NCBI GenBank assembly: GCA_964016885.1
Contig: OZ024741.1
Location: 176,762,001-176,826,000, forward strand
Source of the DNA: Eledone cirrhosa
Taxonomy: Eukaryota
Length of the DNA: 64,000 nucleotides
Direction: 5' to 3'
The position numbers and the translations under genes are program-made. A model generated the notes under the pieces. The model was not told the origin of the DNA and ran no database searches. It was given only the letters and a program-made list of their open reading frames with translations. Shown here one piece after another: positions 12,934 through 64,000 of this stretch. Within the stretch, counting starts at the first letter, position 1. The number at the start of each line of letters is the position of its first letter.

Positions 12934-13420
12934 CGTAAAATAAGAAAATTATAAAATTAACTTACTTACTTAAATTTCACTCCCAACTAATTAGTTTCTG
13001 AAAGGGATTAAATGTACTATCCGAAGAGAGCACGGAGAAGCCTTTCGTCATCAGGGAAGTCTATTCTCAGCTAAGTTTCCAGGCAATGGAATTAGTCCTC
13101 GCTTTGCTTTTTCCATCCACTGAATTATTTTTGTATAAGTTCCCTGTGTCCACGTATTGCCTGGAAACTTAGCTGAGAATAGACTTCCCTGATGACGAAA
13201 GGCTTCTTCGTGCTCTCTTCGGATAGTACGTTTAATCCCTTTCAGAAACTAATTAGTTGGGGGTGAAATTTAAGTAAGTAAGTTAATTTTATAATTTTCT
13301 TATTTTACGTCTCTCATATTATTGTTCTGCAACCCCATGCATTGAACCACATAGTTACTAAGACATAACCTATGTATTTGCTAACATAAGGCTGCATCTG
13401 TGTATATATATGTTACTAGA
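12927..13420 (+). mobile_element. Inverted PLE pLTR pair with HHR-like motif
   Basis: ~160-bp arms at 12927-13087 and 13156-13318 plus a tail. CTGATGA CGAAAGG..CCTTTCA GAAAC TAATTA GTT GGGG at 13185-13263. Confidence 0.7.
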
Positions 13421-25764: not shown

Positions 25765-30936
<5,172 letters not shown>

Positions 30937-37690: not shown

Positions 37691-37710
37691 ATATATACAC
37701 ATATATATAT

Positions 37711-37767
<57 letters not shown>

Positions 37768-37768
37768 C

Positions 37769-37808
<40 letters not shown>

Positions 37809-37839
37809 ATACATATATTCATATATATATATATATATG

Positions 37840-39694
37840 ATAATAATGATGGCTGCACGTTGCAAATGGTGGGGCATATGAAAAAGTAAGTCCTTCGTCA
37901 GTGACCCTCCAACCGTCCCAGGCATTTCATCGCTTTAAGGGCCATATGCCTCAGGTTGGTGCGAACAACGACTAAAAAAAGTCGTTGGGACACGTAAACA
38001 AAGGGGACGCCAGGGTAACAAACAAAAAGGTTTAAGCAACGGAAAGTGAGAAGAAATAGACAAGTCCCAGATCTCTATGAATATAAACTTGGTGAAATCG
38101 TGAACAAGAGACAAAAGACCATCAAACCTGGTTGAAATGTGAGCAAGGAAAGAATTTCGCACAAGTCTAACGGGGGGGAAAAAGAGAAGAAGAAGAAGAA
38201 GAAGAAGAAGAAGAAGAAGAAGAAGAAGAAGAAGAAGAAGAAGAAGAAGAAGAAGAAGAAGAAGAAGAAGATAAAGGGGTCTGGTCTACGAATTCGGTAA
38301 ACATAAGTTTTGTGAAGTCGCAGACGAAAGAGAGAGAGAGAGAAAAAAATGTCCATACCAGCTTGGTCAAGACCACGCGAGAAAAGAATTACACACAGGT
38401 CAAACTTGAAGGAGGAGGAGGAAAGAGGAGGAGGAGAGGTAGTGACAGAGAATGAGTGAGTGAAAGTTGAGGAGGAGGCTAATAGAGAGAGAGACTGCTA
38501 GAAAGGGTAAAAGGTAACGAACAGACGAGTGGCAGCAGAAGAAAAATGATGTGTAAATATGATAACAATGATGGCTGCACGTTGCAAATGGTGGGGCATA
38601 TGAAAAAGTAAGTCATTCATCAGTGACCCTCCAACCGTCCCAGGCATTTCATAGCTTTAAGGGCCATATGCCTCAGGTTGGTGCGAACAACGGCTAAAAA
38701 AAGTCGTTGACACACGTAAACAAAGGGGACGCCAGGGTAACAAACAAAAAGGTTTAAGCAACGGAAAGTGAGAAGAAATAGACAAGTCCCAGATCTCTAT
38801 GAATATAAACTCGGTGAAATCGTGAACAAGAGACAAAAGACCATCAAACCTGGTTGAAATGTGAGCAAGGAAAGAATTTCGCACAAGTCTAACGGGGGGG
38901 GGGGGAGAAGAAGAAGAAGAAGAAGAAGAGAAGAAGAAGAAGAAGAAGATAAAGGGGTCTGGTCTACGAATTCGGTAAACATAAGTTTTGTGAAGTCGCA
39001 GACGAAAGAGAGAGAGAGAGAAAAAAATTTCCATACCAGCTTGGTCAAGACCGCGCGAGAAAAGAATTACACACAGGTCAAACTTGAAGGAGGAGGAGGA
39101 AAGTGGAGGAGGAGAGGTGTCCCAACGACTTTTTTTAGCCGTTGTTCGCACCAACCTGAGGCATATGGCCCTTAAAGCGATGAAATGCCTGGGACGGTTG
39201 GAGGGTCACTGATGAAGGACATACTTTTTCAAATTTTTTTCTCTCTCTCTCTCTTTCGTCTGCGACTTCACAAAACTTATGTTTACCGAATTCGTAGACC
39301 AGACCCCTTTATCTTCTTCTTCTTCTTCTTCTTCTTCTTTTTCTTCTTCTTCTTCTTCTTCTTCTTCTTCTTCTTCTTCTTCTTCTTCTTCTCTTCCCCC
39401 CCCCCCGTTAGACTTGTGCGAAATTCTTTCATTGCTCACATTTCAACCAGGTTTGATGGTCTTTTGTCTCTTGTTCACGATTTCACCGAGTTTATATTCA
39501 TAGAGATCTGGGACTTGTCTATTTCTTCATCACTTTCCGTTGCTTAAACCTTTTGTTTGTTTCCCTGGCGTCCCCTTTGTTTACGTGTCCCAACGACTTT
39601 TTTTAGCCGTTGTTCGCACCAACCTGAGGCATATGGCCCTTAAAGCGATGAAATGCCTGGGACGGTTGGAGGGTCACTGATGAAGGACTTACTT

Positions 39695-39700
<6 letters not shown>
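37840..39700 (-). mobile_element. Non-coding ~720-bp monomer: ~1.8 tandem copies plus an inverted partial copy, in (TA)n (PLE-type architecture)
   Basis: Period 722 (GGCTGCACGT at 37851 and 38573). 39117-39700 is inverted. Internal (TTC)n. Four copies of a ~113-nt structured segment. Confidence 0.8.
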
Positions 39701-39751
<51 letters not shown>

Positions 39752-39849
39752 CATTATATTGGTGTATGTGAATAGCATAATTGGTTTTCATATATGCGTG
39801 CAGCAACAAAGGTAATCATACAAATTTATTTTATATATATATATAAACA

Positions 39850-43557: not shown

Positions 43558-46500
43558 CTTTCATTTTTATTTTCTTTCATTATTGTTTGTGAGATATATG
43601 CCGAGTGTCTTTCTAACACCTAGGGCAAATAAATTCACAGTGTGCATTGGTAAGCCATTTAATACAGCACATTGATTATAATTTAAAAAAAACAGTATAC
43701 ATATATACACGTGCATATGCATATGGAGGGATATCAATCTTACAGTGATAGTGCTCTTCTCAATACGTGTGCAGTACCAGTCAAAACATTTTTTGGCACC
43801 TCGTGTAGAGAGGGTAGACCAGGAATCATTCGCAAATATTGTTCTGTTCCTTTCTTGATCATTCCCAGTCCTCCCACAATCACTGGTATTGTAACGGCAT
43901 TGAGGCGCCACATTTTCTCAATTTCAATAAGCAGATCTTTATATTTTCGTAGCTTGTCAAATTCTTTTTCCGCGATATTGTTATCACATGGGATGCTCAT
44001 ATCTATCAATAAACAGACCTTGTTATGTTGATCTTTTACAATGATGTCAGGTCTATTTGCTTTTATGGTCCTGTCAGTATATACGGGAAAGTCCCAGGGA
44101 ATTGTTACTTTTTCTCCTTCAGTTACAGCCTCAGGGTGAAGATTGTACCACTTGTCTTCAGCTTTGATTTTGTAATGCCGACATATTACCCAGTGTAGAT
44201 AATGGCCAACTCTGTCATGTCTATATTTGTATTCTACTGCTGCTAAAACTTTACATCCAGAGACTAAGTGATTCACTGTTTCAACCTCAGCATTGCAGAA
44301 TCGGCACTTTGGGATTATTCAGTTTCTCATCACATTGGCCTGGTAATTACGAGTCAATAAGCTTTGATCTTGGGCAGCTAAGATGACGCCTTCACTCTCC
44401 GCCCTGAACTACGTAGCCGCTGATGGGTGTGCTTTTGGTCAACATCAACTTGTTTGCTACGGGCCACATATTTGCCATGCATAGGATTCTGCTCCCAATT
44501 TGATGCTAATTATCCCTGTCCTTTTGCTTTTGCCAGTGATTTTATGTGCCTAGCAGCATCAGTTGTAACGGTTTCTTTAGTCTGTCCAGCCTGGGTATCA
44601 AGCATGAGATCAGTAGCATATTTCTGGCTCTCCTTTAAGATAGAATTAAGCTTCTTACTTCTCTCATGCTTTTCAACAAGTTTCAGCATGCAGTCGTTAG
44701 TTGTTTCAAGGTATTTGGCCAGTTCAATGATGGTGGTCTTGTAAGCAAGTCCAAATTGGATCAAGCCACGGCCTCCTTGAGTTCTAGGAGGGTAAAGACG
44801 ATCCACATCTGCTTTTGGGTGGTGCATCCTATTACAGGTCAGTAGCCTACAGACTTTGGTGTCGATTCTTCTGATTTCACTCATATTCCAGTTCAACACA
44901 CCGAAGCTATAATTGACAACTGGGACTGCCAAGGAATTTATGGCTAGCACCTTGTTACGAGCCTTTAATTCTGATCTCAGAAGTTCACGTACTCTCCTCT
45001 AACATTCTTTCCTTATCCTCTCTTTCATACTTGCATGCTGTATGCCAGAGCCCTCATTAATCTCTAAGTATTTATAGGTTTGTTCCTGCTCAAGTTCCTT
45101 TATGATTGTTTCAGCATCCAATTCAACTGAATCTAAGTTGACAAGCTTCCCCTTCTTGAAAGTGGCTTTTGTACACTTTTCAAGTCCAAACTCCATCCTG
45201 ATGTCATCGCTAAACGTTTTTACTGTCCGCTAAAGGCCTTCCCGTTCGCCATTGTCTTTGCAATATCAAATCATCCATATAAAATAGGTGGCTTATTCTT
45301 TTGTTGTCAATTCTATAACCGTATTAAGTTCGGGTGTAAGGGGTATTAAAGCTATGCAGGAAATCAAGGGTGAAAGTGAGTCACCCTGGAATATACCACA
45401 GTTGATGTTTATATTCCTAGAGCACAGTACCCCAGTGGAATGAGACAATTGGATATTTGTGTTCCATAATGACATATTGTGTTTCAGGATGTTTGAGATC
45501 ACAGGTGAGATTTTGAAGATGTTCAGTGACTTCAGAATCCATGAGTGTGGTATGCTGTGAACGGCTTTTTTATAATCGATCCATACAGAACTGAGATTTC
45601 TGTGTTTATTATGACAGTTCTCAAGAATCATACGATTAATCAAAAGTTGATCTTTGCAACCATATGAACCTCGTCGGCACCCGTTTTGTTCAATGGGGAA
45701 AAGATTATTCTACTCCAAAAACACGTATGCTTTTTCCATGAGAATAGAGGTTAATAGTTTATAAGTGGTGGACAAGCAGGTTATGGGCCGATAGTTTTTT
45801 AATCTTTGGTTTCGTTGTTCTTTGGTAGAAGGTAGAAAATGCCACTTGCTATCCAATCAGGTGTATTTTTTTGAACTTTTATAAGTCCATTAAACAGCTT
45901 GACCAATATATTGTGAATGCACGGGCGTGAGGAAAGCCAGAAATTTGGCAACAGGAGATTTCCATTTATGAGATTTATTAGGTGCTGTCCTTAAGTCCAC
46001 TATAGAGATGTTTCCCACGCTTGTTCTAAATTTGTGTAGGAATTTTCCAGGCGACTAATCCAATCTACATTAGCATTATATGTCTTTTCATCACTCCAAA
46101 TCTTACTCCAGAAGTGTTAAACTTCTATGGACGGGGGTGTCTTCAATAATAATTTTTTTCTTCCCTACTTCTCTATAAAATGACTTGGCATTGGATGAGA
46201 ACAACTCATTTTGCCTGTAGAAGTTGTTTCGCTTCTCGAATCTACGAATTCGTTGGGCTTTTACTTGGACTTTTTGTTTCAGAGATTCTTTTGTTGAAAC
46301 TATTGCTTCTCTAGAAGACAGTCCATATTTTCTCTTTAGCCTTCTTACCTTCTTGGATCTATTATCATTTCCAGCGGTTAACTCACTCAATAAAGATATT
46401 TCTCCTCTCATTACGTCAATCTCCTTTTCGATTCTACTCTTCTAAATTGGTTAACCTCGAAGGTTCGACTTTTTTTGTTTTTTTGTTGGTAAACAACTTG

Positions 46501-48290
46501 TTTCAATTGCTGTAGCTCAGTAAGATCAGGTTCAAGTTCTTCTATGATTTCTTTTGTCACAGAATTACCAATCATTATTTGTGAATTGGCAGTATCGGTA
46601 GAGGGTCGGACATGCTTTCCAGCATAGTTACATCCATTTACGATCTGAGTTCAAATCCTGCCGAGGTTAACTTTGCCTTTCATCCTTACGGGGTCGATCA
46701 AATAAAGTACCAGTAATGTACTGTATAATTGCTGGCCTTGTGCCTAAAATAGAAACAATTATTTGTTTTCTACTTTGGATTGTATTTGGGAGTTTATGAA
46801 GTGGTTCTCTATCATTTATACTAGAATGTCTTACTACTGCAAGCTCATTCAGCAGTTTTTGCTTTAATTCCTTCACAGTCTCCCCGTGTTCTTCAGCAGA
46901 TGTTTGCTTTTCAATTACTGTTTCTAAGTCCCTCTTCTGGCCATTTTCAGCGGGTTGAATAGGGCTTCTCATTTCTACAAACTTATTTGTGATTTGGTTA
47001 GATGGAGGTCTTTCAGTAAAGACTTGTGACTGGTTACTATCTCCAGGAGATTCTTCAGTTCTTTCATCATTTATATTTATGTCATTCTCCACAGCCTGCT
47101 TGATCGCAGTTAGTTCAGTGTCTGTGAGTCTATTATTTCTGAAGATATACCTCCTTACATTTGCCAACTTATTTCCATCCATATCACGTCTGCTAGCTTG
47201 ATTCCGAGTTTTCCAGATTTTGTAGGAGTTTAAAGTGTGTCTGTCTTGTGATGGCTTACCTAATGCATAGTAATATGCATATATTACTTCTTTATACTCT
47301 TCTCGGGTCCATTTCATCCTTTTACGCTTTTGTTTTTGAGGTGGTTTGGGTGGTGGATCTGGGGGGCTCGAGTTGGGGCAATCCCCGATCAAGTGACCAT
47401 CCAGGTCCATAATTGGAAAATAGTTTGTGGCAGAGGAGGACTGTTCGATCTCAGGTTGGCACGTTCCTGAGGGACACACTTCCTGATTAACCATAGGAAA
47501 AGCGATTTGGTATTGTGTATTAATTTGTATTTGTTCATCTCACAGTACATGCTTCCGTTGCGCATGGTATTGGGCGTACATGGAAAGTAACCCGGCTGTT
47601 TGGGTAGTGCATTTGCTGGCTGGCACTGAGATCATTATTACTATTATAACATTATAGTTATGGTCATTGCTGACGTTGACGTGATATTGTTTGTTTGCAG
47701 CTGTAAGAGGTGTACGAGAATTTCCCCAACTGTTCTTGTGGTGTGAGTGGTGTGGTGGTTGTGGCAGGGAGATAAATGCTGGGGGTGGGGATGCTGAGAG
47801 TGGTAGTGGGTAGGGGGACATTGTAGTTTATAGGAGTTGTTTCTCCGATGTTATTTTCTGTCTATTTTGAGTTTGAGATGTAAATGGGGTGCTAGTATTC
47901 TTTTTTTCCCCTTTGTTTCGTCCTTTATGTGGGCTCCATACACATACATAAATATACATTCACACGTGTATACTTATACACACGTATGTATATACACATA
48001 TATATATACACACATATATATACACACATGTATATACACCCACACATTAGACACTGAGAAGGGAGGTAGGTAGCAGTCTGTGACAGTAGTCTAAAACTGG
48101 TGTGAATGTGTGAGGAAGTGGTTGTGAATGTGGTGGTGGGAGAGAGAAGTGATCTTTCAACTGTCCATTTTCCTTTCAAAATGTGAAATTGAGCCACAAT
48201 CGACCAAAATGTAAAAAAAGAAAATTGTATTGGGGAAATATTTAAAAAAATATATGCACCTTTCACATCTTCAGCCACAGAGATGATTGC
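43558..48290 (-). mobile_element. Near full-length decayed R4/Dong-like non-LTR retrotransposon (RT plus CCHC plus RLE)
   Basis: ORF starts at 47494 (RMKWTREE..LANVRRYI), then WIDYKKA, GIFQGDSLSPL, YMDD, CRFC..H.VSGC, RHD and RPDI..LID..EK..KY ending at 43740. The 5' boundary is uncertain. Confidence 0.9.
46583..46757 (+). mobile_element. SINE inserted in the Dong ORF with 9-bp TSD ATTATTTGT
   Basis: TSD at 46574-46582 and 46758-46766. Removing the SINE restores ..SRKQIMIGNSVTKEIIEEL. Confidence 0.92.
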
Positions 48291-49028: not shown

Positions 49029-52000
49029 GAATGCTATGGTTGACGGAGGCTCGGATCTGTAAGGTATTGTAAATTTTGACCGCTATAACAATTGTAAATT
49101 GTTTAAAACTTTAACCATCTTGTAGACAGAAACACCCTCCTCCTCGTGAGAGAGGTCACTGCCCGTTATTTGGCCCTTCGGGGTTAAATAACCGCTTATT
49201 GGGGTTTTGTGACCAATGTTTATTTTAAACAAAAAAAAAAAAACATGGCTACGAAAAAGAATTTTCATAGGTCACTCCAACTCATTCCGTCTTCTTCTTC
49301 CTCAATCGTCACTACAGCAGAGAGAAGATTTTCTCTCTCCCTCCCTTCTCTTTCGCAAGCGACGCCAGAAAAGAAAAATCACGTGCAAAGCGTGCAAGAT
49401 TTCTCCACGACGACGACGAAAAAGGTGTGCGGGAAATACGAAAACCCATTTCATTCGTCTGACATCAGGAATAATAGCAGTAGCAGCCGTAATAACAGCA
49501 GCAGCAGCAACAGTGACAAGGAAAACAACAGTAGCAGCCGCAACAGCATCAGCAGCAGCATAAACGACAACAGCATTAGCAGCAACAACAACAGCAGCAG
49601 TAGCAACAACAACAACAACCACAGCAACAGCGGCGGCGGCAGTAGTCGTAGTACCTGCAGCAACAACAAAAGTAACAGCAGCTCTGACGACAACAACAAA
49701 AACAACAGCAGCAGCAAAAGTATCGCAAAGAACCTGGAAACCATCCTCATAACAAATGAGGAATCAGAGGAAGCGAAGAAGATGGTGACGAAAACCGGAC
49801 ACCGAGCAATCTGCAAGGCAGCCGAAAAATGTTTCGAAACCCAACAGCACTGTACGGTCAAATACCGTACAGTAAGCACAAAATCCCGTAGGGTTGAAAG
49901 AGCCACAGAGGCTCAAATACAAAAAGCCTTAGGATCTGTGTGGCAGCGGAAAACGCACATCACCCGAGGCAAGAAATATGCCACCGTTGACGTGCTTTTT
50001 GCCACACCCCAGGAATCAAAGGCTCAATCCTTAGTGACCCTAAGGAGCGAGGAAATGGTGTTGGTGCCCTCCTACAGCGGGCAAAAAATTGTGAGTGTCA
50101 AACTGACCCACGTCCCCCCCCGCGTCTGTCCTCGTCGGAATCGAGGACAAAACAACTGTACTGCAAGTACAGAAAAAAGTAAGAGAATATTGGGTCGGCT
50201 CCTCCATTGAGATGTTAATCCAAACCAACCAGGAGTGCATCGAAGCTATCCCTGATGTGATAGATTTCGATAACGGCACTCAACTGCGCATAAGTTTTGA
50301 GGGCAAACGCCCGAAATGCTTTCGCTGTGGATCGAAAACTCACCTCAGGGCCTTCTGCAACGAGAAGACCCTGAGAAAGGAGAAAACCCCCCTCCTTCCG
50401 AATCCGGCTCCACGGCTACCAGCAACAGGACAAGCGGCAACCAGGAACGATAGGTCCGTGGCACCCATACCCACGCCACGGAAATCAATATCAGCAGCAG
50501 CAGTGGAAATATTAACAACAACAACAGCAATACCAAATGCAGCTGCAACAGAGACTCCAGTGCAAACATCACCAACAACAACAAGTGAAAGAGTGGAGCT
50601 GGTACCCCTCCCCGACCTCACAGAATCAGACAAGGAGTGTGAGGTGGGAGAGGGATGGCAAAAGGTCGTAAGAAGGCACAAACGCAGAAGCAGCGCATCG
50701 TCGCCTTCGAAAAGGGAGGAAACAAACGAAAAAAGGGTAAAGGCTACTGCAAAGAGACTCACAGAAGCAACACCACCAACACCATCACCACCCACACTAG
50801 CACCATCATCCGCACCGGCGACAGCCCCAACGCCAACAACAACAACACCTTCAACACCACCAACACAAGCACCAACATAGCAAACACAACAACAAAACAC
50901 ACACGCCCAGCAACAACGACAAGAAAATATCAGAACCACACCCCACCCCCAGAAAAACAAATGCACGGCAATAAATAAACACAAGAAACTAATGACTTAC
51001 ATAATTGAACACACAGACATTTTACAGCACGACTACATAATACCAGTACCAATCAAAACGCCAACGAACATAAGACTGCTAAAAAAATCACAGAAACAAT
51101 ACACAAACATTAAAACGAAATTCCCTAACGCAGTTGGTGATTTCAGAGAGGGACTCTCAACCAGAGAGTATATTCGGACATACTCATAGAAGAGCCGACG
51201 ACCAGCCGAAGGGACGATTCAACGGTCCCTTCACCAGACGATCAAGTGAAAAGGGATGTAAAAACCATCCCTCCTCTACGAAAAGTACGGTAAGTGGTCC
51301 TTCCCATCTTTTCCACTCTATTTTAAACATCACCTCACTCAGAATAGGCAGCATATATGCACGTGGCTTGGGATCGTCATGGAAGCAGGGTCACCTGCTC
51401 AACGACCTGAGGTCACTAAACATAGATGTAGTGGCCATCAGCGAGACCAATATTCGAAGCACGGGCCTTCGCACCAATCTTCGGCGGCTACGATGTGTAC
51501 GCATCTCCCAGCCGTCCTGGATCGGGGGGGGGGGAGTTGCTGTGCTTTTTCGAAGAGGTTTGGATCTCGCCGAGGATTAGCGAACTAGTTAAGTGGGCGT
51601 TGACGGGGGCCATCGTCAACAACAAGTGGTGGTTTGCTCTGAAAAGAGCGATTAGAATAGAATCCATTAGATTTAGTAAAGCTTTAGCAATAGAGAAAAA
51701 TAGAGCAGAGGGAGAACTAGTTAGAAAATTAGACGAGGCGCTTAGCAAAGGTATCGCGACCGACGTGCTTGCGGCGAAATTGGCCCTTGACCAATTCTTC
51801 AATGCAAAGCACGACGGCTGCGTTGTCAGAGCTAGGGTGCGTGCTCTCAGACACGAGGGGACGAAAGCCGTTCAATGGGCCCGAGTGGCGTAGGCGCGTC
51901 GTAGCAACAAATCCACGTCCGGTCTTTGGTGGACCACGACGGGCGCATGCTACACGATCACGGGCAAATGTGTGAAGCTTTTCAGCGACACTTCGCTCAG

Positions 52001-53235
52001 CTGTTCGGGGGCAGCGGTGGGCCGGGTCGAGGGATGGGCTTTAGTGTCTACCTCGACGGACTGCCGGTCAGGCGGTCCATCTGTTGTCAACACCCGCTAC
52101 GTTGAGGGCTGGGCTTGCCGTGGCTGATGATGCGCAGGCACGCGCTCAGGCTACGACATCTCCACCTCTTCCTCGACGGTGATCAGGTGTGGTCGCCGTT
52201 TGCTAGACACGTATTTCCCCAGCTCGTTTCCTTGACGGAGCTGCAGTCCTGGGTCAAGCAAAGACCGAGAGCGAGCGCCTGGAGACTGGAATGTCTTCAG
52301 GCGCTCACAGCCCTCGACCAATCGGGCAATGTGATCGGTGGAAACTGCACCTCGGCATTCTATACAGGATTATTAGAGGGGAAAAGCGACGACGTACTTG
52401 TGGAAAATCTAGGCGTCGACGAAAATCAACTAGCCAATCTCTTCGGAAGAACTTTTGGGCCGGGACCTACGGACAACTTCCAGAAATCTCTGGCCTGGCA
52501 GTGCTACCGAGGAGCCTTGCCAGTTCGGGATAAACTCTACAGGCATGGAGGTGCCGTCAGACGGGCATGTCCGAGATGCGCGCAGGGCGACGAAACCGTC
52601 CTGCACGCACTCGTCCAGTGTCCCAAAATGGCTGACTTGTGGGTTTATGTCGAAAACCTGCTGTCGCGTGTAGTACGGATCCGGCTATCATCTGTGTCCA
52701 TCGTGAGGATTGCCCCGCCCTCTTCCTTTAGCCGGGAAGGGCAGGCAGTTTGCATCTCCCTGGTGGCCATGGCGAAAGAGATAGTATGGTGGACACGTTT
52801 GAAAGGGCTGAAGACGAGCACTTACCTCTTCGGTGATGCCCTGATTAACTTTTTCAAATTTCATTTGAAAAGGAAAATCAGGGTAGAGAAGGAAGTGCGC
52901 TCTTCCCAGCATTTTGTTGAAAGATGGGTTAGAGAAGCAAGAATGGCCCGAGTGAATGGGCCTATTCAGAGTACGTATCTGTAAATTAAAGGTGGAAAAC
53001 TGGGAGAGGGCACTTGCCTTGGTGATGAGGGTCACTGTGGTCTTTTACTCGGCTTTCTCCACAAATGTCCCTCCGAAGCCTCCCCCCTATTGGGGAACTT
53101 TTCATTGTTATTTTTTTGTTACATCCTCTGTTTTTATTTTTTACACGCAGAAATGGCCATTTGTACCGACCTGTATTGTCCTGCACTGTCATTAATGTCT
53201 ACTTTATGTAAACCCTTGTGGTTAATAAATAAATC
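49029..53235 (+). mobile_element. L1/Tx1-clade LINE, internally deleted (most of APE and all of RT missing)
   Basis: ORF1 from ATG 49245 to 50880 (frameshift ~50115) with zinc knuckle CFRCGSKTHLRAFC. ORF2 start IGSIYARGL..DVVAISET and C-terminal CPRC..ETVLHALVQC. AATAAA, then (ATT)n. Confidence 0.88.
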
Positions 53236-53275
53236 ATTATTATTATTATTTTTATTATTATTATTATTATTATTA

Positions 53276-54626
53276 CAGTTGCATTTATCTTGCTTTATGT
53301 TCATACGAGTTATCACCAAGTCACAACCAGTGACCTCAAGAGACAACAAGGTCCACCATGTTCAAGAAAGAACATACATACTCACACATGCATCTTTAGT
53401 GTTTAGACTTGTGATGTACTTATATTGACAGAATCTTCCTTAGTATATGGGCAGTTACCATTAGTACTATCTTTTGTATTTCTCCTATACGCGGGTTTCC
53501 TGGGATTTGCGATAAGTAATCATTAGACCCCTTAGGTATCATTCCCAGAGCGCCTACAACCACTGGTATTGTTTTAGTTCTCAATTTCCACATTTTTCCA
53601 ATTTCTATCTCCAGGTCCTTATACTTGCTCAATTTTTCAAATGTTTTTATAGATACATTCTTGTCTATTGGAACAGACATATCAATTAACAGGCATACCC
53701 TCTTTTGAAAGTCTTTCAATATTATATCAGGTCTGTTTGCATCTATTTTTCGGTCTGTCTGGATGCTAAAGTTCCACAAGATTGAGATGTGATCTTTTTC
53801 AAGTATGGGAGGTGGTTGATGCTCCCACCAATTCTTTTGATGGGGCAGGTCAAAATGCTTACACATTATCCAATGTATGTATTGTGCAGCTCTGTCATGC
53901 CTGTTTAGGTATTCGGTTGGAGCTATAGGACTGCACATTGAAATTATATGGTCAATGGTCTCTGGTTGTTTTTTGCATACACGGCATAATGGGCTGCACC
54001 CATTTTTTTATTATGTTGGCTTGGTCATTTTTTGTTGGCAGACACTGATCTTGTGCCGATATAATCAGTCCTTCAGTCTCCGATTTCAGTCCAGAGGATG
54101 CCAACCACTGATGGGTTAAAGTTTTGTCAACATCAGGATTGTTAGCTCGCTCTGGGTATTTTCCATACAGAGGCTTTTCTTGCCATTTCTTAGCCAGTTT
54201 CTGTAGCAGTTCTTTCTTTGCAGTTACTTTTACCTGCTTTGCTTTTTCTGTGTTTTCCATTTCAGCAGTAAATGGGACTTCTGAAATTTGTAGTCCATTA
54301 CTGTATCTTTGTGCATCTTTTGTAATGGAATATGATCTTTTGATACTTTCGTGCTTCAAAACGAGTTTGATCATCCAATCATGTGATTCCCTTAGATATG
54401 TAGATAATCCAATTGTTGCAGTTTTCAACGCAATGTCTAACTGGATTAGCCCACGTCCTCCTTCTTTCCTAGGAAGATATATTCTATCTATATCTGCCTT
54501 AGGGTGATGCATTCTGTGCATGGTTAAGAGTTTTCGAATTTTTGTATCGAGCCTACGGATCTCTGTGCTTGTCCAGTTGATGACATTGTAACTGTAGGTT
54601 ACTACTTGTATGGCAAGCGTGTTTAT
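53276..54626 (-). mobile_element. 5'-truncated R4/Dong-like element, family A
   Basis: RLE domain RHD..RPDI..LID..EKLSKY. Near-identical to 61419-62766. Confidence 0.92.
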
Positions 54627-54663
54627 TATTATTACTATTATTATTATTATTGTTATTGTTATT

Positions 54664-54752
54664 CCTTGAATCTCAGTCATTGATGTTGGTTAACTGGAAA
54701 GTCCGTTGGATTGAATATCAAGCCACTACCTGCAGCCTCAGATATTCAGGAC

Positions 54753-54756
<4 letters not shown>
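54664..54756 (-). mobile_element. ~90-bp 3' end of Dong-like family B
   Basis: YVLNI* plus 3' UTR matching 59501-59595 and 60783-60874. (TAA)n on both sides. Confidence 0.85.
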
Positions 54757-54815
<59 letters not shown>

Positions 54816-54817
<2 letters not shown>

Positions 54818-57800
54818 GGTCTGTTCGAACGCTTTTGCTCCCAGTAAGTCGCATTATTTGCCTGTTAAAATTATTCGTTGTTAAATATTTCTTGTTGTGT
54901 AAGGGATATAAGCCCTTAGACTTTTCCCTGTGAAGGGGAAAGTAAAATATTTGGGCCTATAGGCCCAAATATTTGAAAATTTTACTTTTAAAAAGAAATT
55001 GTCTAAAAACAAAACATGGCTGAGCCACGCCCCCCCCCCCCCCACCAATATGTCTGCTGTCGTCTGACAACGGCGTAAAAGTTGAGAGGAGGGTTACAAA
55101 AATTGTTACAACAGGCACCACCACAAACAACGTGAACAAAGACAACACTGAGAACACAAATTTTGAAAAAATTACCACACCAACTACAACAATAACAGCG
55201 TCAACCAAAATACAGACAACAGAAAAAAATAACAAATGCAACAACGATATTGACAACAATAACAAGAAAATTAACAACGACAACAGCATCAATACAAATT
55301 GCACCGAAAACAACAACAACGGTGGCACCAAAAACACAACCAACTACAACTGTGATAACAGCAACAACACCAACAACACCGTTTGTAGTAGTAGCAACAT
55401 CAACAGCACCAATAACAAGACCAGTAGCAGCAGTAGCGGTAGCAATAATGGTGCCGCTGAAAAAGGGGGCACTTCGAGAAACGACAACAGAGTTTCCCTG
55501 AAAACTCCACCCGATTTCTTCAAAGACCAGCTACTGCGCAGGGTGAATTACAGCACCGTAAGCAAAATGTCACAGCGGGTGGAGAGAGCCACGGAGGCTC
55601 AAATCCAAAAGGCCTTGGGGTGCATCTGGGCGCGCAAAACCCACATCACCCAAGGCAAACGGTACCCCACAGTAGACGTACATTTCGCCAGCCCCCTCAA
55701 GAGGCGAAGTCTCACTCTTTGGAAACCCTAAAGTGTGAGGAGATAGTCTTCGTTCCCTCCTACTGCGGGCAGAAAATTGTGAGGTTGAAAGTGACCCAGG
55801 TCCCACCCGATGTGCCATACCTTGGCTGGCCGCGTCTGTCCTTGCTGGAATGGAGGACAGGACGACCAGGCTGCAAGTAGAGAAAATAGGGAGAGAGAAC
55901 TGGTCAGGTATAGGCATGCAAATGCTAATACAAACTGACCAGGAATGTATCGACGCTATCCCCGATATCATAGACAACGAGGAAGGACCCAACTCCCTAG
56001 AAGCGTAGAAGGAAGACGTGGCCATACCTTAGATGGCCGCGTCTGTGCTGGCTGGAATCGAGGAGAAGACCACGATACTGCAAATACAGAGAATCGGAAG
56101 AGAGAACTGGTCAGGAATAGGCATGCAAATGATAATACAGACTGACCACGAGTGTATCGAGGCCATTTCAGAACTCATAGGCCTCGAAGAGGGCTCCAAC
56201 TCCCTATAAGCGTGGAAGGAAGGCACCCAAAGTGCTATCTCTGTAGGCAGAAGGGTCACCTCAGGGCCTTCTGCCCGGAGAATACATCCAAAAAGAGGAT
56301 CGCCTTCCTTCCGACGCCTGATCCGCTGCGCTCAAGAGCAGAGCAGACTACAGAGGCAGAATACCTTTCCATGGTGAGTAGGATGGCAACGTCCGTGGCA
56401 CCCATACCAAGGCCACAGACAACAAAAGCAGCGGCAGCAGTGGTGGCAACAACAACTGTGAAGTTGACTCAGATAGAGTCCATAGGCAAGGGCCCGGCTA
56501 CTGGAAGCTGAACGCATCGTTCCCGGCGCGCAAAGCTTACAGAGACCGGATTAGCGAATTAGATAATCGTGCGTTGACGGGTGCGATCGTCAACAACAGG
56601 TGGTTGTTTACCCTGAAAAGGGCTATTAGAGGAGAATCGATAAGATTTAGCAAAGGAGTAGTGATAGAGGAAAATAGAGAAGAGGGAGAGTTGTTAGACA
56701 GCTAGAAGAGGCGTTTAGGACAGACATTGCAACAGGCGTCTTGCGGCGAGATTGGCACTCGACCAATTCTTCAACGCAAATCATGAACTCTGCGTTATCA
56801 GAGCTAGAACGCGTGCTCTAAGAGACGAGGGGACGAAACCCGTTCAATGGGACCCGGTGGTGGAGGCGCGAGATGGCAACAAGTCCACAATTCTGTCTTT
56901 GCCTGATCAAAATGGGCGCATGTTGCTCGAACCCGAGCAGATGTGTGTGGCTTTCAGCAGCACTTTGCTCAATTGTTCGGGAGCGGTGGCGGGCTAAGTC
57001 GGAGTATGGACTTCCGTGCATACCTCGACGACCGCAGCACAGTGTTGCGAAAAGCCAATAACAGCCGGTGAAATACTTGAAGCGATGGCTAACTGCATGA
57101 GAGGTAAATCGCCAGGTTTGGATGGTCTGCCCTACGAGCTTTATGCATTTATGCCAGACTTGTTCGGTGACCTCTTGGCAGACGTCTACTGCAACTGGCA
57201 GCAGAACGGGAGCTTTCCCGGTGTTGTGAGCCGGGTAGCGGTGGCGCTGCTGAGAAAAGACCCGAACAAGGGGGATGTTATCGATAATTTCAGGCCCATA
57301 ACCCTGCTAAACACAGAGTTCAAGGTTTTGGCCAAGGTGTTAGCAACGAGGTTGGCGCATGTCGTCAAGAGTCTGATGGGAGAGGCGCAGACATGCGCCA
57401 TTCCGGACAGATACATACACGACAACCTCCACCTCGCGCGATACATCATAGAGAGGGTGGTTAAGGAACCTGGCACGGGTGGGCCCTGATCAACTTGGAT
57501 CAATCGAAAGCATTCGATAGGGTCGATCATCGGTACCTGGCGGCGGTCCTCGAGGCAGCCGGTTTCGGGCCCGTTTTCAGGGTTGGATCGCAGCGATGTA
57601 CAGCAATATCTGCTCAGTTGCGAGGGTGAACGGTCACCTGCCGCAGCCGTTCAGCATCATGCGCTCGGTCCGCCAGGTTTGTCCCCTCTCGTCCCTCTTG
57701 TACGTATTGGCTCTCGAGCCGTTACTGCACAAACTGGGTGAGATGAGGGGCGTCCCACGCGAACTAGGATGCCGGAAATCCGAGTCGGCTTATGCTGACG

Positions 57801-59450
57801 ACGTCACCGTGGTGATGTCGATCACCGGAACGTCCAGATGCTCGGCACCGCTCTCAACGAATACGAAGCGGAGACAGGAGCAAAGATAAACCAGGAAAAG
57901 TGGGCTTGCAGCTCGGCACCTGGAGAGGCATGTCAATGCCGTCCGACAGCGTCGTGGGGCGTTGGACGGACGGACCGGTTAAATTGCTCGGGGTCTGTTT
58001 CGGAATGGAGCTCCAGATGGAGAAAAACTGGAAAGAGGTGACGAGCAAGGTAGCCTCCCTCACCCAGAAATGGGCCGAGAGGAAACTGTCCCTGAAAGGT
58101 CGGGCGGAGGTGGCGAATGCGTACATCGCATCCGTCCTCTGCTACCGCCTCACCGTTGTCCCTTGCTCCGGCCCAACTCTCACCAAAATGGAGCGCCTCC
58201 TCTTCCGCTTTTTGTGGAAGGGATGCGCTCCCCTGGTCAGACGATCCATCTGCAGTCAACACCCATTGGGTGGAGGACTGGGCATGCCATGGCTGATGAT
58301 GCGCAAACATGCGCTGAGGCTGCGATATCTCTGGTGCTTTCTTGACTGTGAACAGGTATCGTCGCCGTTCGCCAGGAACGTTTGCCCACAGCTCGTCTCC
58401 TTGACGGAGCTGCAGTCCTGGGTCAGAAAAAGACCGAGGGATAGCGCTTGAAAACTGAAATGTCTCCAGGCGCTCACTGCCCTCTGCCAGCTGGGCACCA
58501 GTATCGGTGGAACATCCACCTCGGCGTTCTATAGTGGACTAGTGGAGGAGAAGTGCGACGACGTTCTCAGAGAGATGATGGGCGTCGAAGAAGATCAGCT
58601 GTTTGCTCTCTTCCGGAGAAATTTCAGCCCATGGCTTATGGATAACTTCCAAAAATCCCTGACCTGGCAGTGCTACCGGGGAGCGCTGCCGGTTCGAGAA
58701 TAGCTTTACAAGCACGGAAGTGCCGTCAGCTGAGCCTGTCCGAGATGCGCGCAGAGCGACGAAACCGTCGTGCACTCACTCCTTCAGTGCCCGAGCATTG
58801 CTGACTTGTGGAGCTATGTCGAACAGTTGCTGTCCCGTGTAGGACTGATCCGGTTATCGACTGAGTACATTGTGCAGATGGTCTCGCCGTCTTCTTTCGT
58901 GGAGGAAGGGCAGGCGGTTTTCATCTGCCTGGTGGCCATGGCGAAAGAGATTGTGTGGTGGACAAGGTTGAAAGGGTTAAAGACAGACACTTTCCTATTC
59001 GGTGAATCCCTAATTAACTTTTTCAAGTTTCACTTGAAGAGGAAAATCAGGGTGGAGAGGCAAGTGCTGCCTTCTAGCAAGTTTGTTGAAAGGAGGGTGA
59101 ATGTAGCGAGAATGGTCCAAATGAACGGGACCGCTTTGAATATACGATGTAGTTTGAGAAATGGAAAAATTGAGAGGGGGCGCTCCTCTGGTGGTCAGGG
59201 TGCCGTGGTCTTTTGTGTACTTTTCGGTACGAGTAACACGGGAGATTTCCTCCCTATTGGGGAATTTTTCATTGTTTCAATTTTCATTTTTATTGTTTAT
59301 ATATATGTTTCTATGTCCTTTATTTTCTTTTCTTATATAAATAATAAAAATATTTACACGCCCCAAACCCACATCGTACCGTCCTGTACCGTCCTGTGCC
59401 GCTGTAATGTTTTTTTGTTGATGTCAGCCCTTGTGGCCAATAAAGAAATC
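54816..59450 (+). mobile_element. Second L1/Tx1-clade LINE, frameshifted, APE deleted
   Basis: ORF1 ATG at 55016, CYLCRQKGHLRAFC, jump to GPGYWKLN. RT motifs KSPGLDG, FRPITLLN, LDQSKAFDRV, SVRQVCPLS, AYADD. C-terminal CCHC, AATAAA, then (ATT)n. Confidence 0.9.
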
Positions 59451-59500
59451 ATTATTATTATTATTATCATTCTTATTATTATCACTATTATTATCATTAT

Positions 59501-60748
59501 GCTTTGAGTCTCAGTCATTGATGTTATTTAACTGGAAAGTTTGTTGAAATGAATATCAAACAAACTACCTGCAGCCTCAAATATTCAGGACATATCGGAG
59601 GGTTTTTGCTGTTACTAGCAAGCATGCCTTTTGAAGTGTTCCAAAAAGCGGGGCGGGCCCAATTTTCTTTAACCATCATTGGAAACTCTGTGAGATAGTA
59701 CCTAGTGCGCCTATGACAATCGGGACGACTTTGACCTCATGGCAGTTCCAAATCCTTTTTACCTCCCACTTCAAATCCTGGTATCGGTTAATTTTCTCCC
59801 TCTCCTTCTCTTGCACTCTCGTGTCGAATGGGCAGGCTACATCCACAATCAGGCACGATCTTTTTCCCTTGTCGAAAACCACCAGGTCAGGTCTATTGTG
59901 TTCCAGTTTCTTGTCCGTCTGTATCCTAAAATCCCACAGCACCTTCACCTGATCATTTTTCCATCACCGACTCTGGCTTATGCTCATACCACTTCTCAGA
60001 ATGTGGTAAATTGTTTACTTTGTATAGGTGTCAGTGGATAAACCTGCCCATCACATCATGTCTCCAGCCTTTATAGTGAGTCTGGGCTAGGTGTTTACAC
60101 TCGGATACAATGTGAGCCAGTCTCCTCTCTCCACAGATTCTACACAGTGGGCTAGCCTCCTCCTTGTAAATATGGTGTTTCAGCCACTTCGTTTTGAGGC
60201 CTGCTCTTGCGCAGCCATTAGCATTCCCTCTGTAGCCTTTTCAAGGTCTCCTCTTCTCAACCAGCTCCATGTCTGTGGATCTCTAAATTTAGTTTTCTCA
60301 AAGAAGGCACTATGAAGGTATTTTTCATGAAGTTTGCTCTTTCTCCTTGTTTTTATTTCCTCCCTGGACATCCCATGGTCCATTGTCCTCTGCTTCAGTA
60401 CAATTCTGAGCATTGACTCCATACTATCAGTCACGTATTTGTGTAGGTTGTTTTCTCCATCTGAACACAGTCCTCTATGCTGATAAGACTTCTTCCAACT
60501 TCAGATCTCCTTAAGGAGAGTCTATCGACATCACTCCTTTTGTGGAACATGTTGTAGATAGTCAATAGCTTCCTAGTCTTCCTATCCATTTCTTTTTGTT
60601 CAGCAACATTCCATCTCAGAATTGCCGCACTGTATCTAATAATGGGCACAGCTCGGGAATTTACTGCACTTATGGGATTCCTACTGTTCAGATGTGACTT
60701 CAATACGCTCTTTACTCTCTGAGTGTATTCAGATCTTATCAATTCCTT
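59501..60748 (-). mobile_element. 5'-truncated R4/Dong-like element, family B
   Basis: AVNSRAVPIIRYSA..TEGMLMAAQEQ..WDFRIQTDKKLEHNRPDL..EKINRY. Confidence 0.9.
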
Positions 60749-61418: not shown

Positions 61419-64000
61419 CAGTTGCACTTATCTTGCTTTATGTTCATACGAGTTATCACCAAGTCACAACCAGTGACCTCAAGAGACAACAAGGTCCGCC
61501 ATGTTCAAGAAAGAACATACATATTCACACATGCATCTTTAGTGTTTAGACTTGTGATGTACTTATATTGACAGAATCTTCCTTAGTATATGGGCAGTTC
61601 CCATTAGTACTATCTTTTGTATTTCTCCTATACGCGGGTTTCCTGGGATTTGCGATAAGTAATCACTAGACCCCTTAGGTATCATTCCCAGAGCGCCTAC
61701 AACCACTGGTATTGTTTTAGTTCTCAATTTCCACATTTTTCCAATTTCTATCTCCAGGTCCTTATACTTGCTCAATTTTTCAAATGTTTTTATAGATACA
61801 TTCTTGTCTATTGGAACAGACATCAATTAGCAGACATACCCTCTTTTTTAAAGTCCTTCAATATTATATCAGGTCTATTTGCATCTATTTTTCGGTCTGT
61901 TTGGATGCTAAAGTTCCACAAGATTGAGATGTGATCTTTTTCAAGTATGGGAGGTGGTTGATGCTCCCACCAATTCTTTTGGTGGGGCAGGTCAAAATGC
62001 TTACACATTATCCAATGTATGTATTGTGCAGCTCTGTCATGCCTGTTTAGGTATTCGGTTGGAGCTATAGGACTGCACATTGAAATTATATGGTCAATGG
62101 TCTCTGGTTGTTTTTTGCATACACGGCATAATGGGCTGCACCCATTTTTTATTATGTTGTCTTGGTAATTTTTTGTTAGCAGACACTGATCTTGTGCCGA
62201 TATAATCAGTCCTTCAGTCTCCGATTTCAGTCCAGAGGATGCCAACCACTGATGGGTTAAAGTTTTGTCAACATCAGGATTGTTAGCTCGCTCTGGGTAT
62301 TTTCCATACAGAGGCTTTTCTTGCCATTTCTTAGCCAGTTTCTGTAGCAGTTCTTTCTTTGCAGTTACTTTTACCTGCTTGCTTTTTCTGTGTTTTCTAT
62401 TTCAGCAGTAAATGGGACTTCTGAAATGTGTAGTCCATTACTGTATCTTTGTGCATCTTTTGTAATGGAATATGATCTTTTGATTCTTTCGTGTTTCAAA
62501 ACGAGTTTGATCATCCAATCATCTGATTCCCTTAGATATGTAGATAATCCAATTGTTGCAGGTTTCAACGCAATGTCTAACTGGATTAACCCACGTCCTC
62601 CTTCTTTCCTAGGGAGATATATTCTATCTATATCTGCCTTAGGGTGATGCATTCTGTGCATGGTTAAGAATTTTCGAATTTTTGTATCGAGCCTACGGAT
62701 CTCTGTGCTTGACCAGTTGATGACATTGTAACTGTAGGTTACTACTGGTATGGCAAGCGTGTTTATGGCATCGATCCTATTCCTTGCATTCAATTCCGTT
62801 CTTAAGATTGCTCTTACTCTGCGGTAACATTCCTTCCTTATCCTTTCCCTCTTTGTCGAGTGCTTGATTCCGTCTCCTTCACAAACACCTAGATATTTCT
62901 AAGTTTTTTCTTGATCAAGTTCTCTTATCACGTTCCCCCGATCAAGATTAATGTCTGAACTCTTCAGCAGCTTTCCTCTGGTGAACGTTGCTTTGGCGCA
63001 TTTATCTAGTCCAAACTCCATTTTAATGTCATCACTGAACTGCTCCACAGTGGATAATAGCCCTTGCAATTGTTCATCATTGTTTGCAAATAGTTTCAGG
63101 TCATCCATGTAGAACAAATGATTAATGGTTTTGTCATAGACTTTATATCCATGTTTTGTTTCATTGAGCATTTTACTTAATGGTATAAGTGCGATGCAGA
63201 ATAAAAGCGGTAATAAAGAGTCACCCTGAAAAATTCCACAATTAATATTAACTTCTCCAGCTTCCAGTGATTTTGTTTCACTATTCAAAAGGAGTGTCGT
63301 TTTCCATGTCTTCTTACTAAATGACAAAAACCTCCTGACAATGGGGGATATTTTGAAAATCCCTAAACGTTTTTCAATCCAACTGTGTGGCAAACTATCG
63401 AATGCTTTTTTATAATCTATCCAAGCAATCGATAGATTTTTGTGTCTATTATGACAATCTTCCAGTATCATTTTGTTAACGAAAAGCTGATCCTTACAGC
63501 CCTATGAGCCTCGTTTACACCCTTTCTGCTCAATGGGAAATAGGTCATTTGTTATCAGGTGGTCATATGTGTATTCAGTTAGGACTGATGTTAAAATGTT
63601 ATACATTGTGGTCAAGCAAGTTATCGGTCTGTAATTTTTGGGATTGTTTGTCTCATCATTCTTCGGAAGCAGGAATGTAATGCCGTTAACTAGCCATGAT
63701 GGTATCTTTTCTGGCTCCTTAACTATTTCATTGTAAAGTTGGGCTAACAGCTCATGAGACTCTGTGAAGGCATTTATCCAAAAGTTTTGTATTTTGTCTT
63801 TTCCTGGGGATTTCCATTTGCTGGTTTTTCGTAGAGCCAAGCGCAACTGTTCAACTGTTATATTTTCCCATATTTGTTCCTCAAGGTGAGCTGTATCTTT
63901 CATTTGTCTGTCTATCCATCGGGCATGTATGTTATGAACATTTTCTTCGGCCCAGATCTTTTCCCAGAATTCTTGCACTTCCTCCTTGGGTGGTATTGAT
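61419..64000 (-). mobile_element. R4/Dong-like element, family A (continues beyond the window)
   Basis: WKSPGKD, YRPITCL, WIDYKKAFDS, GIFQGDSL, YMDDLKL, CRVC..H...C and RLE, with a few stops and frameshifts. Confidence 0.93.

Follow-up and report, generated by a model that had tools for sequence, protein, structure and literature searches.

The closest described relatives of the RNA reported here are permuted hammerhead ribozymes, animal retrozymes and the Naiad group of Penelope-type elements (PLEs). Eckert et al. (2023; PMC10085705) split the hammerhead into three blocks, S, G and C, and validated two non-circular orders of these blocks, SGC and CSG. The accessible part of that paper treats the blocks as uninterruptible, gives cleavage rates in vitro of 0.004-0.19 per min for permuted hammerheads, and draws its SGC and CSG examples from metatranscriptomes, with only two CSG sequences reported. 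According to the available passages of the respective papers, animal retrozymes are cleaved into monomers, which are then circularised (PMC7229834), retrozymes derive from PLEs (bioRxiv 10.64898/2026.07.22.740005), and PLE hammerheads have been proposed to process precursors (PMC4209133). Naiads, as described in the accessible text of Craig et al. (2021; PMC8557442), target (TA)n, form partial tandem and inverted insertions and have an optional tail; they are reported there to be without canonical hammerheads, with only unexplained 'HHR_core' and 'HHR_half_core' marks. Their proliferation without canonical hammerheads has been read, in the same text, as a hint that ribozymes may merely parasitise PLEs. 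A literature search, largely outside subscription papers, found permuted hammerheads described neither for animal genomes nor for Naiads, and the available part of a 2026 paper (PMC13725137) cites only Eckert et al. and viroid-like agents for such variants; it is quite likely that none has been reported.

The window analysed here is a stretch of 64,000 nt from Eledone cirrhosa (contig OZ024741.1, positions 176,762,001 to 176,826,000). A preliminary description had singled out a heavily pseudoknotted RNA in it, which could not be fitted to the hammerhead consensus and whose strand was left undecided. Read on the plus strand, 39585-39702 holds a complete hammerhead core, comprising CUGAUGA (39677-39683), GAAA (39650-39653) and stems I-III, with all core nucleotides present in a permuted order; the strand that carries CUGAUGA and GAAA is plus for this copy, and the CTGATGA once regarded as an orphan has its GAAA partner upstream. 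Judged from its letters and pairings, the motif is a hammerhead in non-circularly permuted order and not a new ribozyme class, and the permuted fold is almost certain. As a whole, we favour, with a probability of about 80%, a permuted hammerhead with a four-way junction by the core that cuts its own RNA after A39633, likely on a Naiad-mobilised non-autonomous element.

The core blocks follow one another as the cleavage block (AGGCAU-A), GAAA and CUGAUGA, that is, in S-G-C order, and the last A of GAAA pairs with T39632 and begins the ATGCCT strand. Pairing was scored in a MAFFT alignment of 32 copies of families A-D, all related by descent and hand-chosen from a pool of 369 instances (266 distinct); 14 of them are cluster medoids and 18 are diverged copies of full length, and truncated and rearranged copies were excluded. 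The 3′ strand of stem III and the NUH triplet occupy 39627-39633, and stem III (AGGCAT/ATGCCT) is 83.3% paired. The 5′ strand of stem I (39634-39640) pairs with 39670-39676 as TGGCCCT/AGGGTCA, directly 5′ of CUGAUGA (89.2% paired, two-sided changes at 6/7 pairs), and a linker of 4 nt leads from it to stem II. Block G extends over 39645-39658 by sequence and pair counts (stem II 3′ strand GCGA, U39649, GAAA, stem III 5′ strand), and 39664-39688 reads as the 3′ strands of the I/II helix and stem I, CUGAUGA, A39684 and the GGAC strand of a further helix, P0. Between stems III and I lies the triplet AUA (39631-39633) with an A15.1:U16.1 pair, and the cut is predicted 3′ of A39633 (39633/39634); that cleavage occurs as predicted is very probable. 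Two positions that were not selection criteria are kept in 31 of the 32 copies each, U16.1 and a non-G H17 (C or A). Among 153 copies anchored by the upstream hairpin, 136 retain CUGANGA and GAAA undamaged, most of the loci having been fetched with patterns containing core letters; the invariance of core letters in the alignments is not taken as evidence, because those letters were selection criteria.

What sets this hammerhead apart is the route to stem II, which is reached through a junction. The strand 3′ of CUGAUGA does not pair with the strand 5′ of GAAA; instead, GCGA (39645-39648) pairs with the upstream TCGC (39614-39617), GGAC (39685-39688) pairs with GTCC (39587-39590), and a hairpin lies between. 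We take TCGC/GCGA to be stem II, because the linker and the I/II helix connect to it, and infer that this helix would stack on the core. Its 5′ strand thus stands 5′ of the cleavage block rather than 3′ of CUGAUGA; it is 92.7% paired with two-sided changes at 1/4 pairs, its letters having been used in part to choose the copies. P0, whose 5′ strand is 39587-39590, closes the ribozyme where the RNA enters and exits (83.6% of cells paired, 2/4 pairs two-sided), and the inserted hairpin (39591-39612; 92-100% paired, 5/8 pairs two-sided) forms the third arm of the junction. A 6-bp helix links stems I and II at their far ends, as in a tertiary stem I-stem II contact: its 5′ strand, 39619-39624, pairs with 39664-39669 (94.2% paired, 6/6 pairs two-sided; poorly aligned in family E). 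From 5′ to 3′ the order is P0, hairpin, II, I/II helix, III, cut site, I, II′, GAAA, III′, I/II′, I′, CUGAUGA, P0′. P0 and the hairpin are inserted beside A9, giving a four-way junction and splitting block C between A9 and stem II; the topology equals a CSG ribozyme joined end to end and reopened inside block C.

Compared with the SGC and CSG ribozymes in the accessible part of PMC10085705, the Eledone RNA has the same core, crossed stems I-III, a short I-II linker and a I/II helix, together with the S-G-C order of SGC. It differs in that block C is split, with P0 and the hairpin between A9 and stem II, and in that the II and I/II strands come first; moreover, those examples are metatranscriptome agents, whereas this hammerhead is present in more than 11,000 copies in an animal genome. 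The succession of cleavage site, GAAA and CUGAnGA is that of type SGC, but no stem II strand directly follows CUGAnGA, its partner being upstream and the downstream GGAC pairing in P0. Type CSG does not describe it either: the part of block C that comes first is its stem II half alone, and CUGAUGA stands last.

Covariation supports these helices. The model pairs 89.0% of cells in the 32 copies against 78.1% after shuffling, a level that none of 500 shuffles attained, and slid-partner controls pair 31-45%. Two-sided changes occur at 24 of 36 pairs, and at least 38 Watson-Crick swaps on the tree are spread over all helices (P0 4, hairpin 5, stem II 1, I/II helix 10, stem III 4, stem I 9, core-closing pair 5). 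In contigs from three sequencing runs, one of them from a second organism, paired changes are seen at 39630/39655 in stem III and 39639/39671 in stem I, and the core is without variant among the 40 of 50 variants listed; no joints or ends were seen in these contigs. The preliminary pairings AGGCAT 39627/ATGCCT 39653, CCAACC 39619/GGTTGG 39664, TGGCCCT 39634/AGGGTCA 39670 and TCGC 39614/GCGA 39645 and the side hairpin are confirmed at these coordinates. A proposed GTCCC/GGGAC helix does not: it pairs in 57.5% of cells against 57.0% after shuffling, with 225 of 500 shuffles as high, which is the level of chance. Its GGGAC strand belongs to an unpaired linker (39659-39663) that is variable among families, and GTCC pairs with the GGAC after the core instead.

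The four occurrences noted earlier in the window are all ribozyme copies, recognised by sequence and descriptor. A second plus-strand copy lies 468 nt upstream of the first (39117-39234; predicted cut after 39165). On the minus strand, 38601-38714 has an intact core with damaged P0 and stem II, and 37880-37993 is intact (CUGACGA) and is followed by a tail of ~40 nt and (TA)n. When the window is searched for the S-G-C order, with a minimum of 5 bp each for stems I and III, the descriptor matches these four sites and no others; 60 dinucleotide-shuffled windows gave no match, and the four copies are not due to chance.

Genome-wide, a general pattern gives 11,473 matches in 3.0 Gb, and patterns for individual families give 3,560, 506, 1,026 and 462, the first two of which overlap the general count; each control gave 0. 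All 40 scored DNA matches to the 39585-39702 copy are 100% identical to it (family A). Stems I and III (at least 4 bp) form at one UH site in 49/51 loci of family A, 25/30 of B, 20/26 of C and 32/36 fetched regions, and in 19/28, 34/44 and 11/40 loci of mutation-selected sets. Both stems formed at one UH site in none of the 120 pattern matches listed from viral contigs and in none of 43 from metagenomes.

The host element is non-coding, contains simple repeats and is set in (TA)n repeats, and the ribozyme appears to sit at its 3′ end, which agrees with the original proposal of a pseudoknotted, probably self-cleaving RNA ending a non-coding Penelope-type element. By blastn of the full unit against the window and by its repeats, 37826-39118 (minus strand) is a partial tandem dimer with ribozymes 722 nt apart; it abuts an inverted, internally shortened copy at 39117-39702 (plus strand), which ends tailless in (TA)n according to blastn and end analysis. 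Neighbouring ribozymes on the same strand are separated by a median of 634 nt (quartiles 529-736; 103 spacings, overlapping loci counted twice). A (TA)n repeat follows within 160 nt of 237 of 290 last copies, and 40 of 271 loci carry copies on both strands. Like the animal non-LTR retrozymes in the available passages of PMC7229834 and bioRxiv 10.64898/2026.07.22.740005, the element forms non-coding tandem units with one hammerhead each, and PLE-dependent mobility has been proposed for those retrozymes; unlike them, with their type I hammerheads in units of 150-450 bp, it has a permuted fold and a median spacing of 634 nt.

A replication scheme can be proposed on this basis. A read-through transcript of a tandem pair would be cut at both ribozymes, and the double cut would release a unit of ~470-770 nt with 5′-OH and 2′,3′-cyclic phosphate ends. 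The two halves of the ribozyme could then re-pair, and ligation would restore it intact in a circle. A PLE reverse transcriptase with a GIY-YIG endonuclease, of the Naiad type, might copy the unit into (TA)n, leaving partial tandem and inverted insertions. The position near the element end and the extra base 5′ of the helix after CUGAnGA recall hammerheads with a weak stem III; those need dimers, whereas a full stem III and a I/II helix are present here. Stem III is long, and the ribozyme would therefore work as a monomer.

Several observations connect the element with Naiads, as the preliminary description had guessed. The (TA)n target, the tandem and inverted insertions and the optional tail are those of Naiads in the accessible part of PMC8557442, although the Eledone element encodes no protein. 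Partial passages of the published consensus file (54 records), compared by eye and unscored, show the split or the plain CSG fold in 15 records, and the same ribozyme as in Eledone is readable in several 3′ UTRs. The split fold stands at the end of Naiad_Ovul and of the preceding record (Naiad_Obim by file order), 3′ of the ORF in Naiad_EuTe from a clam shrimp, and at the end of three coral records, which their place in the file assigns to Acropora; more examples occur around file parts 8 and 12. By eye, the octopus version and the Eledone families have the hairpin loop and a linker in common. A plain CSG arrangement with a I/II helix is found in seven records of file parts 13-16, nematode by file order, three of which are headed Nippostrongylus in the supplement. 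Neither the split nor the CSG fold was seen in the bivalve records in the passages of the file examined. On balance, these readings incline us to the view that hammerheads are present in Naiads after all, in non-circularly permuted form: nematode Naiads would have plain CSG, and those from corals to octopus a seventh topology, in which a core block is split and a four-way junction is formed. From its sequence features, the Eledone element is probably mobilised by a Naiad.

An autonomous partner bearing the motif was nevertheless not found in the genome. A decayed Naiad-like family (L435-L488) gives 145 matches, most with stops, and has a common 3′ UTR ending in (TA)n; no ribozyme is readable in these remnants, whose shared 3′ ends are too decayed. 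None of 30 Naiad remnants has a recognisable ribozyme within 1.5 kb downstream, and 20 have none within 4.4 kb, save for one partial profile match in L486, at a distance of 1.7 kb. The genome did not yield the octopus-Naiad-type motif itself, a Naiad RT pattern had no match in viral contigs or in the genome, a DKA-motif pattern found four decayed genomic copies, none with a ribozyme, and a search for homologues of the window's PLE RT gave no Naiad motifs among the at least 120 proteins listed. Alternatively, the element with the same permuted hammerhead would be mobilised by another PLE clade and would have only inherited its ribozyme from a Naiad. Canonical PLEs with a C-terminal endonuclease sit in the window and their hammerheads share CTGATGAAGGAC, and the sampled Naiad remnants are decayed and without the ribozyme, while the scored family A copies are identical (40/40). 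The remnants represent a single Naiad family found with a 95-aa query, however, the canonical PLEs of the window carry type I hammerheads and not the split fold, and the Naiads of the accessible records agree with the element in fold, loop, linker, (TA)n target and tail. We regard mobilisation by another clade as unlikely, and prefer the Naiad.

The topology itself could also be read as an ordinary hammerhead of type SGC whose stem II is 1 bp long (A39684:U39649) and whose upstream helices are accessory. The core order is indeed S-G-C, the linker between stems I and II is 4 nt, near the 3 nt of SGC in the available part of PMC10085705, and the 10.1:11.1 position shows A-U, U-A, G-C and G-U pairs. 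A39684 can pair with U39649, so that the junction next to the core in the 39585-39702 copy is a single A-U pair; over the 32 copies this column pair is 56.3% paired, with four pair types, and is unpaired in 14. Family E and the published Naiads, as far as their records are available, speak against such an arrangement: both have a stem II of 5-6 bp formed from the upstream strand and adjoining GAAA, and in both the sequence after CUGAnGA pairs only in P0. The strand of the I/II helix is also upstream, unlike in SGC. In family E (14 copies; five helices pairing 74-92%) the cut site is the canonical GUC, and a 5-bp stem II, GGCGC/GCGCC, adjoins GAAA with a G-C pair next to it (88.6% paired). Covariation in this family is weak (77.3% paired against 75.7% shuffled), and its I/II helix reaches only 31.5% in the MAFFT alignment, a low value that, judging by eye, we put down to subfamilies aligned out of register with one another. 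A plain SGC ribozyme is therefore given little credence beside the split fold.

It is also improbable that the fold is kept as a recognition or priming structure for a PLE protein, with little or no cleavage. Insertions end in two classes ~40-50 nt apart, 16-17 or ~55-67 nt past the core, and the region therefore lies near the start of reverse transcription; minimal PLE hammerheads, moreover, cleave weakly in vitro according to the accessible part of PMC4209133. Against this, the catalytic nucleotides, whose core letters had served for selection, and the non-G H17, which had not, are kept across families with swapped helix pairs, and stem III and the I/II helix are intact. An Rfam scan gave no hit in the window at gathering scores and, over 37700-39800, no ribozyme hit up to E=10, with only weak microsatellite-driven matches; nested folding was uninformative, missing the structure on both strands (z -1.3 and -1.9), and nested-structure programs cannot represent the pseudoknotted topology. 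A ribozyme class of its own or a nuclease-blocking RNA on either strand, to which the missing Rfam match and the failure of plain folding would lend some colour, can hardly be maintained against a full hammerhead core that lies, on one strand, in register with its three covarying stems, and the earlier HDV-like reading of the opposite strand is not needed.

Should the favoured reading hold, permuted hammerheads would be an ancient, abundant and active feature of animal genomes that all standard descriptors have missed, and the element would represent the first family of retrozymes to use a permuted hammerhead. Non-circular RNA permutation, so far a matter of rare agents in metatranscriptomes, would be present in thousands of copies in the genome of an animal, and the rule of three uninterruptible hammerhead blocks would be broken. 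For PLEs, it would offer an answer to the open question of how Naiads proliferate without canonical hammerheads; if Naiads have permuted hammerheads, self-cleavage may be a general feature of how PLEs replicate.

Other features of the window and the genome are recorded here as observations. A broken canonical PLE (RT, then GIY-YIG; 26646-28478, plus strand) is followed by a conventional-order core, CUGAUGA-A-stem II-GAAAC, at 28990 (plus), and three further conventional-order hammerhead cores lie on the minus strand at 29348, 32002 and 33189; an ORF at 29794-30471 (minus) is a PLE endonuclease fragment. An inverted pair of CTGATGA-C-GAAA cores at 13054 (minus) and 13189 (plus) possibly represents very minimal hammerheads. 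Judged from translations only, 43740-47539, 51083-59507 and 61823-63501 contain non-LTR retrotransposon fragments. In the available part of the Naiad consensus file, records near file parts 17-19 have longer inserts, with GAAA placed well 5′ of CUGACGA, and may be further elaborated forms; those near file parts 25-26 have a different conserved 3′ motif in common. Four further, more diverged Eledone copies (L423-L426), whose stem II ends read GUC-GAAA, resemble the published octopus Naiad ribozyme more closely in style and have no PLE ORF within ~6 kb upstream. Finally, one locus (L342; G000:C1:43917300-43925000) is a head-to-tail array of nine ribozyme-bearing units ~740 nt apart.
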